The notes under the pieces were generated by a model. The model did not search any database. It was not told where the DNA came from and worked only from the letters and a program-made list of their open reading frames with translations. Positions 2,021 to 35,600 of a stretch of DNA of 51,037 nt are shown here, piece by piece; position 1 is the first letter of the stretch, and every line of letters starts with the position of its first letter. The position numbers and the translations under genes were made by a program. The DNA lies in IMG/VR virus record IMGVR_UViG_3300036851_000137, positions 1-51,037 of that record; one strand, given 5' to 3'. The stretch comes from a virus. Lineage: Duplodnaviria; Caudoviricetes.

Positions 2021-4150
2021 TTATTGAACCGCCATCCCTTGCGCTTGCGCCGTCTGCGCCTCGTGCCAACTCGCGAGCGTGTCTAACACGTCGATAATCG
2101 CCAGATACCGCTCGGTCTGCTGCCCGGCCTCGGCCGCTTCGGCCTTAGCAATGTTCAGCATCGCCGCCGAGCGCATCTGCTCGATCTTCGCCCGCGTCTC
2201 CTCGCCCGACATCGCCAACTTCGTCGCCTGCAACTGCGTCTCAGCATTCTCCGCCCGCGCTGTATGACTACCCAACACCGTATCCGCCTCAGCCTTTGCG
2301 GCCTGCGCATGCGCAAGATGCGCTTTCGCCTCGTTCAGCGGCACCAAACTCTGCGCTACCGCCATCTCTGGTGTCGGTTGCGGCGGCTTCAGCTGCGCCT
2401 GTTCGATGATCGCCCCAATCTTCGCCGTCACGCTCGCCGGCAACGGCGAGTATTTCAACAGCTCAAGGTAAACTTCCGGCGGAACCGGCATCTTGCCAAG
2501 CAATGGCATCATCTGAATCAGCGTTTCCCACGCCCGTTCCTTGATGTTCGGGCTGGTCGGCGTGTCGTCAACGATCACGTCGTACTCAGCAACGCCTTCC
2601 TGATGGACCAATGGCACATATTTTGCCCGATCCGCGCCACCAATGCGTATCAGCCGCCCATCAGACAAGAAATTCGTCATGTACCAGAGCATAAGCCGGC
2701 CCTGATCCTTGCGGTATCGACGCAAAGCATCGAAAAATCCCGCCAAAACGGTCATTCCAGCCTGTTTTCGCGCATGCTCAACGATGCCAGGCTGATCCCG
2801 CTCGACAAGCCCTAAAAGCTCCAAATTGATGCCCGTCCCGTCGCGGATCGTCGATAACGCCAGCGTCATCATCTCGCTAAGGGCTGGCGGCATCGGTGTT
2901 TGAGGCCGAGGCATGATCTTGCTGCCCGAAATTGCCCCCGGCGACACGTAAACGATCGCCTGCGGGTCGGCCCAATCATCCTCAGCCTTCCGAACATCAT
3001 CAAAAGCCGTCGTCTCGGCCATAATGCCGCCCTTGGCGCCCGTGTTCATGATGTGCATCATCTGCGAGAGCCACTTGTTGGCCCATCGCTGCGGATCGAC
3101 CATGCACCGCACGATCCCAAACCAGAAACCCTTGTTGCGATCCCGTTCCCCGGTCATCGCCTTCCAGGTAAACCCGCCCTCATCCGGCCCACGCCACACT
3201 TCCAGTACCTTCGACCCGAGCATCGCCCGCCAATAGCAGCGCTTCTTCTGACAAACTGCGAACGGCTCCGGTATCCCCATCATCTCGAAGCGTTCAAGCA
3301 GCTTGCGCCACTCTGCCTCGGAAAATGTCGCCTGTACCCCGGTAAACGGGTCAACCGCGCGGTAGGTAACCTGCCGCTCCCACCATTGTACCTCGACCAT
3401 GCGAACGGTCGTGTTCTCATGACCTAAATCCGGCTGCCCGTCCGCACGATAGAACCGCGCCTCATCCTGGTTCTCGGGCTTCTTCCCGCTGAGCGAGTCC
3501 TTCGCCCATCCGGCATTCAACTCGTCGCGCGTCGCGTCCGGGTACATCTCCTCCGCGTCGTAGCACGGCACGTCGCGTACCCGCCAAAGCCGGCGCGCAT
3601 CGCTCAAATTCTTCTTCGTCGCGTTCGCATCCCAGAACATCTCAAGCGGATCAATCCGCATGATCGTCAGCTTTCCATCCGGGTTCTCATCGTATGTCAA
3701 GGCTGAATCGCACCAACCCATGCCGGTCACTACAAGATCAAAGAACGCGTCCGACTCCTCATCCTCGGCGTCGCTCTCGTCCCTGATCCACCGTGCCGCC
3801 TCGGTCAGCAGCTCGTTGACCTCCACGTCCCCTTGCTCGCGCGGGATATACCTCACTTCCTGCCGATTACCGACCTCCAGGCCACAGACAATCTTGACCA
3901 TCGGCCCGATCCGGCTGAACGTCGCGTGCGGGCGGTTCTGCTCATCGAGATACGCCTTGTCCTCATCCGACCACTGCCGCCCAGCCACGAAGTCGTAGAC
4001 CTCAATCGTTTCGACCTCCCAATCGTGCCGGTGATCACGGTCGGTACGGAACCACGACTTGAAACGCTCAAGCAAGTCTTCTTCGTCGGCGGCTTCGTAT
4101 GTTGCTGGCTGCTGATACCCGGCGCTGCCGCCGTCAGCCATCGGTGGCAC
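2021..4150 (-). CDS. Portal protein, P22-like
   Basis: 709 aa; YDFVAGRQW, RIGPMVKIVCGLE, FFDLVVTGMGW, YDVIVDDTPTSP motifs and a C-terminal coiled-coil barrel. The true start may be the ATG at 4141. Confidence 0.92.
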   Translation of the reverse strand: MPPMADGGSAGYQQPATYEAADEEDLLERFKSWFRTDRDHRHDWEVETIEVYDFVAGRQWSDEDKAYLDEQNRPHATFSRIGPMVKIVCGLEVGNRQEVRYIPREQGDVEVNELLTEAARWIRDESDAEDEESDAFFDLVVTGMGWCDSALTYDENPDGKLTIMRIDPLEMFWDANATKKNLSDARRLWRVRDVPCYDAEEMYPDATRDELNAGWAKDSLSGKKPENQDEARFYRADGQPDLGHENTTVRMVEVQWWERQVTYRAVDPFTGVQATFSEAEWRKLLERFEMMGIPEPFAVCQKKRCYWRAMLGSKVLEVWRGPDEGGFTWKAMTGERDRNKGFWFGIVRCMVDPQRWANKWLSQMMHIMNTGAKGGIMAETTAFDDVRKAEDDWADPQAIVYVSPGAISGSKIMPRPQTPMPPALSEMMTLALSTIRDGTGINLELLGLVERDQPGIVEHARKQAGMTVLAGFFDALRRYRKDQGRLMLWYMTNFLSDGRLIRIGGADRAKYVPLVHQEGVAEYDVIVDDTPTSPNIKERAWETLIQMMPLLGKMPVPPEVYLELLKYSPLPASVTAKIGAIIEQAQLKPPQPTPEMAVAQSLVPLNEAKAHLAHAQAAKAEADTVLGSHTARAENAETQLQATKLAMSGEETRAKIEQMRSAAMLNIAKAEAAEAGQQTERYLAIIDVLDTLASWHEAQTAQAQGMAVQ

Positions 4151-4367
4151 TCACCAATTTCCGCGTAGCGAATGCGACCGCTGGAGAGAGTTGGTTGACG
4201 CGAACATCGCGCGGCAGGCGCACCCTCTCAATATCACCGTGACAATGCGCCACAAAGGTCAACTCATCCTCCGCTTCGTTTCTATAAGCAACCAACTCAT
4301 CAACCGGACGGTCACAGATTGCGCAACGCGGACGAAGGGCATTTAAAATCGCCAGATGGTCAGCCAT
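4134..4367 (-). CDS. Hypothetical protein (CxxC ... HCHG, possibly Zn-binding)
   Basis: Coupled to its neighbours through ATGGCTGA overlaps. Confidence 0.6.
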   Translation of the reverse strand: MADHLAILNALRPRCAICDRPVDELVAYRNEAEDELTFVAHCHGDIERVRLPRDVRVNQLSPAVAFATRKLVSATDG

Positions 4368-4584
4368 CGGCGCCATCACGTATCAAAAATTCGCGAAACG
4401 AGCGTTCTAAATCAGCTTCCGCCTTGTCGAAATCGCTATCAAATCGCTTATCCGCAATCATCCCGTCTTGCAGGTTCTCGTAAAGCGCCGACACACAAAG
4501 GAGAACGTCGCCGTCAGCCATCGGACCACCAGCACTGCGTTGCCTGCCCTGGACGCGACCGCCAATGTGTCGGCCGCTCATCAT
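4360..4584 (-). CDS. Hypothetical protein (start may be the ATG at 4521)
   Basis: ORF track; overlap coupling at both ends. Confidence 0.5.
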   Translation of the reverse strand: MMSGRHIGGRVQGRQRSAGGPMADGDVLLCVSALYENLQDGMIADKRFDSDFDKAEADLERSFREFLIRDGADG

Positions 4585-4587
4585 CCC

Positions 4588-4761
4588 CTAAATATCTACC
4601 CGCTGCGATTTCCACCCACTGACCATGAGATCTTCAACCCAGCAGCAAGCAGACGCCAAGCGACTAGTGCCTAGCCGCTCGTCAATCACGAAAAGATCGA
4701 TCACCGTCCCATCGGCTGGCGCTGCCTCGATTGGCCACCGACGCTGCACCACGTCAGCCAT
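4588..4761 (-). CDS. Small DUF551-like protein
   Basis: Translated by hand: MADVVQRRWPIEAAPADGTVIDLFV..., matching WxPIExAPxDGT. Confidence 0.55.
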   Translation of the reverse strand: MADVVQRRWPIEAAPADGTVIDLFVIDERLGTSRLASACCWVEDLMVSGWKSQRVDI

Positions 4762-4927
4762 TCGGCAGCCTCAAGTCCGGGCCGCGCCACCCTTCGTTGT
4801 AGAGACGTTTCCATGCCTCCCAATAATCGATGCCGCGATCGCGATACATTTCTACAATTATGTCGCGATACTGCGCACGACCAACAGGGAGATAGAAATC
4901 ACCAGCCGGCAGAACGAACTCAGCCAT
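4754..4927 (-). CDS. Hypothetical protein (57 aa)
   Basis: Translated by hand: MAEFVLPAGDFYLPVGRAQYRD...PNG*; overlap-coupled on both sides. Confidence 0.5.
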   Translation of the reverse strand: MAEFVLPAGDFYLPVGRAQYRDIIVEMYRDRGIDYWEAWKRLYNEGWRGPDLRLPNG

Positions 4928-32436: not shown

Positions 32437-32733
32437 ATGGCCACATGTACTACCGAATCGATTGCTATATGGTTCAATCAATGGTTAGCGCGACCTATTG
32501 ACGATAGGGATCGGGTTATTATACAGGGGACCCTGCATTGTCTTGACCACCCCGAAGATGTAGAACGTGCTAACGACAGATATAGGCCAGAAACTGCGGT
32601 CGTTAGACTTCTGTCTGTAATTTGCACCTGCGGTCGCATCGTTCATGTCGGGGAAGTTCTGGAGAATACCCGCGAAGTTGATTGTATATGCGGACGGCGG
32701 TATCAGGTCACACCCGCTCATAATCAACGCTAA
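32437..32733 (+). CDS. Hypothetical protein (Zn ribbon)
   Basis: CTCG and CICG; between sites 32405 and 32717. Confidence 0.55.
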   Translation: MATCTTESIAIWFNQWLARPIDDRDRVIIQGTLHCLDHPEDVERANDRYRPETAVVRLLSVICTCGRIVHVGEVLENTREVDCICGRRYQVTPAHNQR

Positions 32734-32839
32734 GAGCACGATACCGAGATGAGCATCCGAGAAGCGCAGGACGAACGGGGTTCCTACCTGATTGTTCGAT
32801 GCCCGAACTCGCGGTGAAGCTGGGCGAGGCGCGGAGTCG

Positions 32840-33019
32840 TCAGGACGCCTGAAGCGCCTTGTGAGCCTCGTCGAGCGCGGCGTCAAACGCGGCCCGTTCC
32901 TCGGGCGTCGGCGCGGTCTCGCTGCTGAAGAGATCCCAAATCTGTTTGACGGCCTCGATTGTCTGTGGCATCGCGGCGAGGATCTGGAGCAGAAGCGGCA
33001 GGAGCACGGCGATAGGCAT
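32840..33019 (-). CDS. Small amphipathic protein downstream of the lipoprotein (lysis accessory?)
   Basis: Not in track: MPIAVLLPLLLQILAAMPQTIEAVKQIW...HKALQAS. Confidence 0.6.
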   Translation of the reverse strand: MPIAVLLPLLLQILAAMPQTIEAVKQIWDLFSSETAPTPEERAAFDAALDEAHKALQAS

Positions 33020-33025
33020 GGCTGA

Positions 33026-33346
33026 TTACCTCACAGGAATAACGGATTGAAGGTTCTTGATCGCGGTGAGCGCGGACCCTAGCATGGCCTCGTTCTGTTC
33101 GGCGGCCTTGACCGCAGCATATGCCTGGTTATCAGCGTCCTTGATCCGCTGGACAGTCGCCGGATCGGAACACGGCGGCGGCGCAACCGTGCAGCGCGGC
33201 TGGCTGGTGTAGATCAAAGCCAACCGCTCGGCGGTCGTAAGACTGACGACGGCGGCCGCGACCTTGGAGCTGACGCTACCGCCGCCCGTACCGGCACAGT
33301 TTGCCAGAATGAACAATACAGGGAGCATAACGGCAAGGCGTTTCAT
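33026..33346 (-). CDS. Lipoprotein (possible spanin-like lysis protein)
   Basis: Signal peptide with lipobox ILANC; lies in the lysis region. Confidence 0.7.
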   Translation of the reverse strand: MKRLAVMLPVLFILANCAGTGGGSVSSKVAAAVVSLTTAERLALIYTSQPRCTVAPPPCSDPATVQRIKDADNQAYAAVKAAEQNEAMLGSALTAIKNLQSVIPVR

Positions 33347-33394
33347 GTGCGCGGACTCCCATCGGGATTGCGGGTGACCGCGATGTTGATAAGT

Positions 33395-33820
33395 TCAGGC
33401 TGCTTCATTATCGGTGCCCCTTCGGTTGTGGTGCCGAATTTGCTGTGCTAGAGCACCGCGATACGCGACGATGTTCTCCGGCACAACCTTTCGAGTAGTT
33501 GTGGATGTCGCTGCGTGCGCGATAAAAAGCTCGGCCTGCAAACTCTTGATTTTCAGGTAGGGAAGGCAGGCAGCCAAAATAATGGCCCCAGCCTGTGGCC
33601 CCACCTTCCAGACAAATTCCTGCTTCCATCGCAGCGGGCGCTTCCCCACTCTATGCACGCGGCCACCAAATGTCTGCTGTATCCAAAGCAACGCGCCCTC
33701 ATGGCTGTTGTAGACACAGCAAATCGGATGATCCCGGCCCCTGTGGGAAACGATCGTAACGGACCCCTCGCCGTCTATTAAGCCGGCCAAGTAGGCAAGG
33801 TCCGTCTCGGCCCAGTTCAT
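33395..33820 (-). CDS. Free-standing single-motif LAGLIDADG homing endonuclease
   Basis: DLAYLAGLIDGEGSV, FGG, LPYLKIK. Confidence 0.9.
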   Translation of the reverse strand: MNWAETDLAYLAGLIDGEGSVTIVSHRGRDHPICCVYNSHEGALLWIQQTFGGRVHRVGKRPLRWKQEFVWKVGPQAGAIILAACLPYLKIKSLQAELFIAHAATSTTTRKVVPENIVAYRGALAQQIRHHNRRGTDNEAA

Positions 33821-34038
33821 GATCTCGGAGACCCGTCAGGGTTCCTCGTAATTGCTTGGTTTGCCCACATACCGCAGTCGCGAAGCTGGCGCAGCAGGTA
33901 GGTTTTGTCGGGGCCGTCTGGTATCCAAGGTTCGATCGTGTCCGTAAACGCTTTGAATGCATCGCGTATTGCACCCATTGTGTTCATCTGTTCATCGGTG
34001 GGCTTGAGATATTGGAATGTCGAGTGATGCAGGGCCAT
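33817..34038 (-). CDS. Acb2/Tad1-like hairpin protein (putative cyclic-nucleotide sponge)
   Basis: FQYLKPTDEQ...IRDAFK...PDGPDKT...L...MWANQAITR pattern. Confidence 0.65.
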   Translation of the reverse strand: MALHHSTFQYLKPTDEQMNTMGAIRDAFKAFTDTIEPWIPDGPDKTYLLRQLRDCGMWANQAITRNPDGSPRS

Positions 34039-34153
34039 CGGATCTCCTTTCAGTTTCCATAGAGAGCGAGCGGCCCGCCAGCGGCGAACACCAGCAGCAG
34101 CACGAGCACGACGGCGAGGCCGATGAGGACGTAAAGCCAGTAAGGGCGCTGGT

Positions 34154-34312
34154 TCACCGGATCGGCGCTCCGAAGACCCCCCAGCCGAGTAGCCCGAGCA
34201 GAATGTAAATCAGTAGCCAAGGCGCGTGCCCCTGATTGAGCGGCCAATTCCAGAATCCGGTGAACACTAGCGAGATCACGTACAAGATCCAGAACCATAT
34301 GCCTGCGGTCAT
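34154..34312 (-). CDS. Small two-TM membrane protein
   Basis: Not in track: MTAGIWFWILYVISLVF...LLGLLGWGVFGAPIR; GGAG RBS. Confidence 0.6.
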   Translation of the reverse strand: MTAGIWFWILYVISLVFTGFWNWPLNQGHAPWLLIYILLGLLGWGVFGAPIR

Positions 34313-34322
34313 AGCGGTTCTC

Positions 34323-34733
34323 CTATGGGGTCACGGGCGCTGGTTGCGGTCGCACGTCAACCGGCACGGACGGTGCGGCAGCGGCCTCGGTCGCCGGCAC
34401 TCGCGTCGCGATGTTGTCTAGCCCCTTAGCCGTGACCGTGACCGTGACCGGCATCGGCGTTCCCGCCTTCATGGTGGCCTCAGCCGACGCCTTTGCCGCC
34501 GCGACCTCCGCAAGCCGTGCTGCCTTGATCGCGGCGATTTTCTGCCAGGCCGACCATACCAGCGTCGCGAGCATGGCGGCAGCCGTGACGGCCATCTGGA
34601 TCTGGTCCCCGCTCACCGTCAGTGCCCAGGTGAACCCGAGCCCGCTCGCGATCTGGAGAAGACCTCGGACGACCGCCCCCATGATCGGTAGATAGGGCTT
34701 GATCCAATCGGCGATCGTCAGGTCGTTACCCAT
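34323..34733 (-). CDS. Putative holin
   Basis: GAVVRGLL and LVWSAWQK, two TM segments; near the endolysin. Confidence 0.6.
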   Translation of the reverse strand: MGNDLTIADWIKPYLPIMGAVVRGLLQIASGLGFTWALTVSGDQIQMAVTAAAMLATLVWSAWQKIAAIKAARLAEVAAAKASAEATMKAGTPMPVTVTVTAKGLDNIATRVPATEAAAAPSVPVDVRPQPAPVTP

Positions 34734-35089
34734 TTCCGTTCTCCAGAAAGGTTCAAACACCAAACGCGAGCCCACGGCAGCCAAATCGGGTAGAAGACGA
34801 TATACCGCATCGACCAGATTGCCCATGCAATCGCCACCCAGCACAGCACGTCAGCCTGAGCGTCAAGAACGGCAGGGTCATGGAGCCAGCGACGGATCAT
34901 CGTCCCTCGCAATAGATCGGCCCGATAGGCTGCACTCGCTCGCAGGAGCAGCCGGACAGGATGAGTAGAAGACTTAGGATGGCTGCGAGGCGGATCATCT
35001 CAGCCGTGGGAACACGACGAAGATCATCAGGATCTCCGCACCTACGATAGACAGGGACACGGCCGCGATGAGCAGATCGTAGGCCATGA

Positions 35090-35347
35090 CTATTCGCTCG
35101 TCCCGTTACGCTCGGAGGTGAACTGCGGCGGGTGCAGCTCGGGGAACGCCTCGACGATTGCGTGGGCTACCTCGCGATAATGGTCGGCCTGACATTTTGA
35201 GCACGTATATGAGTGGGGATCGCTGACGAAGGGGCAATCGCCGGAATGCTCGATCGCGGCCAGGATTGCGTCGGCGTTGCCGCCATCATCTGCGATTATC
35301 AACAAGCGAGCGATCTTTTCGGCGTTGATCTCGGCTACGGTCTTCAT
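35090..35347 (-). CDS. Hypothetical protein
   Basis: Likely start MKTVAEIN. Confidence 0.45.
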   Translation of the reverse strand: MKTVAEINAEKIARLLIIADDGGNADAILAAIEHSGDCPFVSDPHSYTCSKCQADHYREVAHAIVEAFPELHPPQFTSERNGTSE

Positions 35348-35357
35348 CTCACTGTCC

Positions 35358-35588
35358 TCACTCCCTCGGCGGATTCCTGGCCCCGGCAAACAGTGCCAAT
35401 GCAGCGGCCAGGGCTGCCGCCAACGCCTCGGACAGGCGATTCTCGGCATCGCACTTCCGTCCGGCCTCGATCATCGCCGACAGGTTCCACCAACAGGTGA
35501 CGACGCTGCCGACGACGATCACCACGTAGGCCAGGATAACCGCCGCCACCAGATAGAACGACCAGCGGAGAAGGTCGAAGGGCGGCAT
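35358..35588 (-). CDS. Small membrane protein
   Basis: Two hydrophobic helices; follows the endolysin. Confidence 0.55.
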   Translation of the reverse strand: MPPFDLLRWSFYLVAAVILAYVVIVVGSVVTCWWNLSAMIEAGRKCDAENRLSEALAAALAAALALFAGARNPPRE

Positions 35589-35600
35589 CGGTTGCCACGG

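Follow-up and report, generated by a model that had tools for sequence, protein, structure and literature searches.

Introduction

The closest described counterparts of the locus reported here are the mORF gene hybrids of fungal mitochondria, known from atp6 of Allomyces macrogynus, from atp6, atp9, cox2 and nad3 of Glomus sp., from atp9 of Rhizopus oryzae and from cox2 of Mortierella. As set out in the available portion of the account dealing with them (PMC3630166), these hybrids consist of an endonuclease open reading frame (ORF), mostly of the LAGLIDADG type, seated in the 3' part of a conserved gene, a foreign C-terminus supplied in phase, and the native C-terminus (C*) displaced downstream, the native copy being the one closer to relatives at the DNA level and the peptide being almost unchanged. 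Among phages, free-standing endonucleases have been described as the seg and mob genes of T4-like phages, including mobE, which splits nrdA in the Aeromonas phage Aeh1 (PMC2988022, in the part available). Here we describe a locus on the minus strand of a complete virus record from IMG/VR with a length of 51,037 bases (the window throughout this text), in which a free-standing LAGLIDADG homing endonuclease gene lies between two versions of the 3' end of a gene of the Acb2/Tad1 family.

We regard it as quite probable that a cassette of about 474 bases, made up of a replacement tail and the endonuclease gene, entered the 3' end of the Acb2-family gene at about codon 59/60 and thereby stranded the native tail downstream of the endonuclease gene.

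Results

Organization of the hybrid locus

Direct reading of the sequence and the list of ORFs gave the arrangement compiled in Table 1. The hybrid gene terminates with CGMWANQAITRNPDGSPRS and a stop, its C-terminal end also being given as MWANQAITRNPDGSPRS, and its TGA shares an ATGA with the start of the endonuclease gene, whose product begins with MNWAETDLAYLAGLIDGEGS. The endonuclease gene itself ends with a TGA at 33397..33395, and seven bases separate this stop from the orphan tail, the codons of which read INIAVTRNPDGSPRT up to a TGA that again shares an ATGA with the start of the next gene. The latter encodes a putative lipoprotein with the N-terminus MKRLAVMLPVLFILANC, for which no Pfam or PHROG family was matched. 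Two tails with ATGA overlaps flanking the endonuclease gene had already been claimed in an earlier, sequence-only description of the locus (the initial annotation), and were confirmed by both the direct reading and the ORF list; a codon comparison likewise confirmed its statement that the two copies of TRNPDGSPR differ in seven of their nine codons (10 of 27 bases), all differences being synonymous. The repetition is not due to chance, because a tail of the TRNPDGSPR type is the near-invariant C-terminus of a large protein family (see below).

Table 1. Features of the hybrid locus, with positions in the window.
Feature	Position	Strand	Remarks
Hybrid Acb2/Tad1-family gene	34038..33817	-	73 amino acids (aa); ORF list
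Endonuclease gene	33820..33395	-	141 aa; free-standing, single-motif LAGLIDADG homing endonuclease, I-CreI-like; ORF list
Orphan Acb2 tail	33390..33343	-	Sequence read directly
Small putative lipoprotein gene	33346..33026	-	106 aa; signal peptide ending in L-A-N-C; ORF list
Replacement 3' end	33820..33861	-	N60-S73; stop at 33819..33817
Putative inserted element	33388..33861	-	474 bases, comprising the replacement tail, the endonuclease gene and the 7 bases that follow it; placed by the homology switch
Mini-ORF	33343..33408	-	21 codons, MKQPEL followed by the orphan; start within the 3' end of the endonuclease gene
GGGAG	33356..33360	-	Within the D-G-S codons of the orphan, 9 bases 5' of the lipoprotein ATG
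Codons C55-I63 of the hybrid allele	33850..33876	-	Position of the candidate pseudo-palindromic target in endonuclease-free alleles

When the locus was compared with other alleles of the family, homology was found to switch, on the left side, at the N60 codon and to resume, on the right side, at the N codon of the orphan; both edges of the element would be ambiguous by the AAC codon that is common to them. The GGGAG inside the orphan is, from its position, likely the ribosome-binding site of the lipoprotein gene; the same GGGAG together with the ATGA junction is also present in two of the endonuclease-free loci considered below (L084 and L012). The start of the mini-ORF is preceded by AGGGG and its stop falls within the ATGA of the lipoprotein gene, so that the mini-ORF, if translated, may relay translational coupling to that gene.

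An intron-borne endonuclease was considered and rejected, as no Rfam match was obtained at E-values up to 1 in the region 32900-34400, and an intron or intein context was rejected on the grounds that stops are present on both sides, that the frames differ and that only the seven bases mentioned above lie between the endonuclease stop and the orphan. The scan for promoters and terminators gave nothing above shuffled expectation that bears on the element.

Assignment of the two gene products to families

The 73-aa protein matched Pfam PF24729 (Acb2_Tad1_hairpin) over residues 10-65 with a score of 34.4 bits (cut-off 27), and also matched phrog_1454 (5.6e-13). We found 361 homologues, mostly of 71-74 aa, whose C-terminus, MWANIAITRNPDGSPR(T), is nearly invariant; residues T64, G69, P71 and R72 were invariant in 45 aligned members. 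The hybrid protein retains 20 of the 20 family-invariant residues, because the Acb2 frame is completed by the incoming tail, and with all of these kept it should remain functional. An AlphaFold model based on 45 sequences showed three helices with a predicted local distance difference test (pLDDT) value of 90, and the top PDB rows obtained with Foldseek were T4 Vs.4 (Acb2; 7uq2, with cyclic GMP-AMP) and CbTad1. These structural matches were weak (E 0.46-2.9; template modelling (TM) score 0.31-0.48), and the predicted fold is only consistent with the assignment. When PDB sequences were searched with the Acb2 profile, no Acb2/Tad1 structure was retrieved, just a designed helical bundle.

The endonuclease carries one LAGLIDADG motif, LAGLIDGEGS, at residues 11-20, and D16, G17, E18, G19 and K92 were invariant in 20 homologues. 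A profile of the 20 homologues matched I-MsoI, I-CreI and I-CvuI in the PDB with E-values of 1e-10 to 1e-26 over profile positions 3-144. The single-sequence match to Pfam LAGLIDADG_3 was weak (17.2 bits, below the cut-off of 22.5), and phrog_5046 was matched at 5.1e-16. Both family labels given in the initial annotation were therefore borne out, Acb2/Tad1 by the PF24729 match above threshold and LAGLIDADG by the full-length profile match to the three enzymes.

Recurrence of the endonuclease clade at Acb2 tails

Homologues of the endonuclease were collected by a word-indexed search, which yielded 76 besides the window's own (11 of them at 45-57% identity), and by an exhaustive search, in which 6,717 proteins were found at E-values up to 0.001 and the best 150 were examined; 222 homologues in total were examined in this way. 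Four of these ended with an Acb2-type tail, and all four were within the 11 closest. P0124 ends with VAITRQADGAPR, which matches residues 61-72 of the Acb2 homologue P0038 in 11 of 12 positions and begins directly after the N60 position. P0125 ends with RLPDGTPRG (8/9 to an Acb2 tail) and P0126 with RQPDGAPR (8/8, found exactly in four of 120 Acb2 homologues), and the fourth, P0128, ends with SDSTPRT (5/7) and is doubtful. The simplest reading of P0124, P0125 and P0126 would be that the endonuclease frame extends into a displaced Acb2 tail; as judged from these protein ends, the clade recurs at Acb2 tails.

Neither IMG/VR nor the species-representative genomes contained a close homologue of the endonuclease (best 37% and 34% identity, respectively), and no Acb2 gene or tail was present in the 160 loci whose endonucleases are more distant (identity of 40% or less). 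Fusions of Acb2 with the endonuclease were looked for by a search for longer proteins, which gave two, both being N-terminally extended forms of Acb2. The N-terminal extensions of 60-70 residues present in endonuclease homologues were ruled out as Acb2.

The in-gene tail is the divergent copy

The in-gene tail had been called a recoded 3' end in the initial annotation. The replacement tail is indeed divergent, but deliberate recoding is not required to account for this: among the natural DNA versions of TRNPDGSPR (n = 29), 127 of 406 pairs (31%) differ in at least seven codons and 10% in at least ten bases. As the divergence falls within the natural range, the tail can simply have come from a distant allele, the end of which accompanies the endonuclease as it moves. 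Its best match among 159 natural gene ends reached 36 of 48 bases, and the best matches were not syntenic.

We then ranked the segments by identity among 70 distinct natural alleles that share the 73-codon register, a low rank denoting divergence. Codons 41-59 of the window gene had a mean-identity rank of 52 and the orphan a rank of 43, with a nearest-neighbour identity of 0.89 (rank 55), as opposed to the in-gene tail, which had a mean-identity rank of 5 and a nearest-neighbour identity of 0.73 (rank 4). The 5' part joined to the orphan thus behaves as an ordinary allele, and the 5' part joined to the in-gene tail does not. The AGG codon at R65 of the in-gene tail was present in none of the 29 natural versions, and its Q62 occupies a position held by I or V in 114 of the 120 homologues listed. 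The sole other protein with Q62 among these 120 was P0003 (ANQAIT), a 73-aa Acb2 homologue of 82% identity encoded on a contig of 33,355 bases, which may be another endonuclease-bearing allele or a former carrier.

These ranks also bear on where the left border of the imported DNA should be placed. Were the Acb2 gene and the endonuclease gene to have arrived together from another phage, with the left crossover located 5' of Acb2 and no more than the final 45 resident bases surviving, one could understand that the whole Acb2 gene has a GC content of 0.53, below the 0.60-0.64 of its neighbours, and that its 5' part (codons 5-59) is not specially close to the relatives that share its flank, which rank 5, 28 and 39 of 105. 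We nevertheless consider such a whole-gene import unlikely, as the contrast between the typical codons 41-59 and the outlying tail agrees with a breakpoint at codon 59/60, and as the endonuclease ORFs of the homologues described above run into Acb2 tails, placing the insertion inside the gene. It would, moreover, be a variant of the proposed cassette insertion rather than a true alternative to it, since long co-conversion tracts are expected in homing.

Endonuclease-free relatives and the native-like character of the orphan

Single-protein searches of viral contigs with the Acb2 protein, the endonuclease and the lipoprotein gave no relatives, a blastn search with 2.1 kb against 50,697 phage records gave no match, and tblastn of Acb2 against the phage collection gave distant matches alone (at most 41% identity). 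Alignment-based searches succeeded and provided loci containing an Acb2 homologue, 80 from viruses and 80 from metagenomes; some contigs occur in both collections, and the 160 loci reduce to 112 distinct genes. An endonuclease homologue was found in none of the 160 loci. The comparison with endonuclease-free alleles that had been proposed in the initial annotation came out in favour of the latter, with one match to the tail motif in 128 loci, none in 32 (variant tails) and two in none.

Only few of these loci share the surroundings of the window gene. A homologue of the 52-aa membrane protein encoded upstream was present in L084 and in L012/L085 alone (the latter two being one contig), and a homologue of the 173-aa holin-like protein in L090 alone. 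The orphan agrees at 40 of 48 bases with the gene ends of both L084 and L012/L085 and at 37 with that of L090, and the sole non-syntenic locus in this range of 37-40 was L033 (38/48). The Acb2 stop of L084, L012 and L090 overlaps a small lipoprotein-like gene by ATGA. As no similarity could be detected between the lipoprotein of the window and those of L084, L012, L090 or L046, the position of the former is analogous, not homologous. Taken together, the match of 40 of 48 bases to syntenic loci, the same ATGA-lipoprotein arrangement and the typical rank of the orphan support the earlier claim that it is the displaced original end.

The same data speak to the question whether a local duplication came first, i.e. 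whether the Acb2 3' end was duplicated in tandem, with the endonuclease landing between the copies later and the copies diverging in place. The presence of two copies of one peptide 471 bases apart would agree with this, but we hold it to be very improbable: none of the 160 relatives carries a duplication, and it is the non-coding orphan that matches the consensus and the DNA of relatives, the expressed copy being divergent, which is the opposite of decay in place. Furthermore, synonymous changes at 10 of 27 bases need a long time, in which an unselected orphan should have decayed. Least credible of all is a contig that is chimeric between the alleles of two strains, as, even though the record is derived from a metagenome and a second strain occurs nearby in the same run, a contig from an independent assembly of this run spans 32674-34493 with 0 differences and no joints, a chimera would not leave the copies separated by an intact endonuclease ORF that has an ATGA junction on each side, and the homologues show the same endonuclease-tail junction.

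The second strain in the source run was seen as a contig of 190 bases at 34464-34653, with 22 differences and a depth of 3.3 as compared with 9.8, inside the gene of the 173-aa holin-like protein.

A candidate target site at the putative insertion junction

Homodimeric LAGLIDADG enzymes read pseudo-palindromes, and a pseudo-palindromic target is therefore expected for a single-motif, I-CreI-like enzyme. Codons 56-63 of endonuclease-free alleles often read GCGATGT-N6-ACATCGC. Among 105 distinct alleles, the palindromic arms pair at 7/7 positions in 13 and at 6/7 in 23; the background rates in 801,051 twenty-base windows of the loci were 0.023% for 7/7 and 0.24% for at least 6/7. The 112 distinct genes contained 70 windows with at least 6/7 pairs, 39 of which lie at the offset of codons 56-63. 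The junction falls on the site that is the most palindromic in the gene family. The symmetry centre is at codons 58-59, and therefore a cut leaving a 4-base 3' overhang would adjoin the A59/N60 junction, where homology switches. The cut site would then be this candidate pseudo-palindrome over codons 56-63, near the M-W-x-N codons, and such a site would, in hindsight, fit a homodimeric enzyme.

The hybrid allele of the window retains 4/7 arm pairs at this position, and the orphan side 1/7. Its changes within the candidate site are GCG to GGT at codon 56 and ATC to CAA at codon 62, Q62 altering all three codon bases within the right half-site; the two changes may be what a resistant allele would need.

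Gene ends flanking related endonucleases

In order to look for comparable arrangements, 154 loci with related endonucleases and the window were scanned for similarity between the peptides encoded directly upstream and directly downstream of the endonuclease gene, random pairing of loci serving as a control (95th percentile 36, maximum 114). The scores were 153 for L201, 62 for the window, 59 for L198 and 55 for L316.

L201 (500-1870) is a mirror image of the window locus. Upstream of its LAGLIDADG gene (633-1079) there is a stranded, native-looking 5' end belonging to a 263-aa gene, and the real start of that gene, at 1079, is formed by a second copy of the 5' end; the copies have 27 identical residues in common, with 22 of the 27 codons different. 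The stranded copy has a GC content at third codon positions (GC3) of 0.85, as compared with 0.37 in the fused one, where the low value is limited to approximately the first 30 codons, the rest of the gene having 0.8-0.9. The 263-aa gene is without a Pfam family, and its upstream neighbour is a terminase nuclease domain. In L198 (2927-3493), the LAGLIDADG gene (2995-3480) has a 152-aa ORF on one side and the large terminase gene (3374-4768) on the other, and a 12-residue copy of the terminase N-terminal region, in another frame, is found upstream of the endonuclease gene; this copy agrees with its counterpart at 10 of 12 residues and at 25 of 36 bases, and may represent a further stranded gene end. 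In L316 (around 1421-1726), the peptide encoded upstream of the endonuclease gene resembles an endonuclease C-terminus, which suggests two endonuclease genes, or remnants of them, in tandem. The cases of L201, the window and L198 suggest that phage LAGLIDADG endonucleases recurrently employ terminus replacement, at one end of a gene or the other.

Genes upstream of the hybrid gene

The minus strand of the window at 34050-35600, upstream of the Acb2 gene, carries small membrane-protein ORFs, including the 52-aa protein, which has two helices. A short, GTG-started hydrophobic ORF is located in the gap between the stop of the 52-aa gene and the Acb2 start, the 173-aa protein showed a weak match to a holin (phrog_263, 3.4e-4), and a 33-aa ORF with an L-S-G-C lipobox was found at 34998..34897 (-). 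From these contents, the block looks like a lysis or accessory block.

Discussion

On the basis of the above results, the following course of events is proposed. The cassette would comprise the replacement tail (N60-S73 and its stop) and the I-CreI-like endonuclease gene. Upon insertion, the incoming tail would complete the Acb2 frame, the endonuclease would become translationally coupled via the ATGA, and the phage's own tail would be pushed downstream. During a mixed infection the enzyme, presumably as a homodimer, would cut endonuclease-free alleles in the conserved codons 56-63, and the break would be repaired from the endonuclease-bearing genome, with the 5' part of Acb2 as the left arm and the orphan, together with what follows it, as the right arm. 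The carrier would be protected, its site being split and both halves being altered. The orphan probably persists both as the right homing arm and as the carrier of the ribosome-binding site and the ATGA junction of the lipoprotein gene. As the downstream genes differ widely among members of the family, the conserved 45-base tail would be the sole portable homology arm on the right-hand side.

Several points weigh against this proposal or parts of it. The closest endonuclease-free relatives are 66-72% identical in Acb2, and no near-isogenic empty site is among them; the source run, which is the sole run holding the stretch and is represented by contigs only, contained no endonuclease-free variant and is uninformative on absence. 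With respect to the target, 69 of the 105 distinct alleles score at most 5/7 arm pairs, the palindrome is a consequence of the conserved peptide A-M-W-A-N-I-A and was spotted post hoc, and the cleavage sites of free-standing phage endonucleases often lie away from the place of insertion. The synonymous divergence of the two tails, being within the natural range, is by itself no sign of selection for resistance. As for the left edge of the import, it is not placed by the scattered ranks of the flank-sharing relatives, and the GC3 differences are small, are based on 14 codons and are not decisive for this boundary. Finally, the recurrence at Acb2 tails is read from protein tails alone.

More generally, though we put this at somewhat less than an even chance, the endonuclease clade may specialise on the invariant tails of Acb2-family genes, which presumably act against the cyclic-oligonucleotide-based anti-phage signalling system (CBASS), in soil phages, spreading as a unit of replacement tail, endonuclease and orphan arm that could carry segments of Acb2 alleles between otherwise unrelated phages, and terminus replacement may be a general, intron- and intein-free mode of entry into conserved genes at either end. 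If the cassette insertion is true, homing-associated co-conversion could redistribute sponge alleles among phages, the target being a putative (Acb2-like) anti-defence gene. The locus would then illustrate a route by which a selfish endonuclease enters a short, constrained phage gene without harm, namely by supplying a working copy of the piece it displaces, and would extend terminus replacement, described for fungal mitochondria, to phages. Full-text literature searches retrieved no phage example of terminus replacement, nor a paper in which Acb2 is connected with an insertion of this kind. The proposal also yields a concrete predicted pair of enzyme and site, i.e. the 141-aa enzyme and a pseudo-palindrome of roughly 20-24 bp over codons 56-63. 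For annotation it would follow that the orphan, the 21-codon mini-ORF and endonuclease ORFs entering host-gene tails (P0124-P0126) are insertion footprints rather than new genes or domains.

Comparison with known systems

The hybrid gene product resembles the cyclic-nucleotide sponges Acb2 (T4 Vs.4) and Tad1 in having the Pfam Acb2_Tad1_hairpin domain above threshold and in its top structural rows, 7uq2 and CbTad1, and departs from them in that the structural scores are weak (E 0.46, TM 0.46) and that a profile sequence search found no solved structure. The endonuclease shares with I-CreI, I-MsoI and I-CvuI the full-length profile similarity, the single LAGLIDADG motif and a size of about 140-170 aa; however, the coding sequences of those enzymes reside inside group I introns in ribosomal RNA genes, whereas the window's enzyme is free-standing and has no intron.

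According to the portion of the T4 mobile-element review at hand (PMC2988022), the seg and mob endonucleases are similar to the present element as promoter-less cassettes on host-gene transcripts and in relying on double-strand-break repair with co-conversion of flanks. In contrast to it, they are GIY-YIG or HNH enzymes that usually lie between genes and have no duplicated gene end, duplication not being mentioned in that portion of the review. The case of mobE and nrdA, as described there, also differs, since mobE leaves two functional gene pieces and not a replaced tail with an orphan.

In its architecture, the locus matches the fungal mitochondrial mORF gene hybrids of the Allomyces atp6 type, as far as these are portrayed in the excerpted account. 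Like them, it has the endonuclease ORF in the 3' part of a gene behind an in-phase replacement C-terminus, a displaced native end that is closer to relatives than the replacement (40/48 as against at most 36/48 bases; ranks 43 and 5 of 70), and a single terminus in alleles without the ORF (0/160 with two, the closest being 72% identical in Acb2). Unlike them, it resides in a phage and not in an organelle, it appears to have invaded a 73-aa putative anti-defence gene and not a respiratory gene, with 14 codons replaced, and both of its junctions are ATGA overlaps in a packed operon, where the orphan doubles as the putative ribosome-binding region of the next gene.

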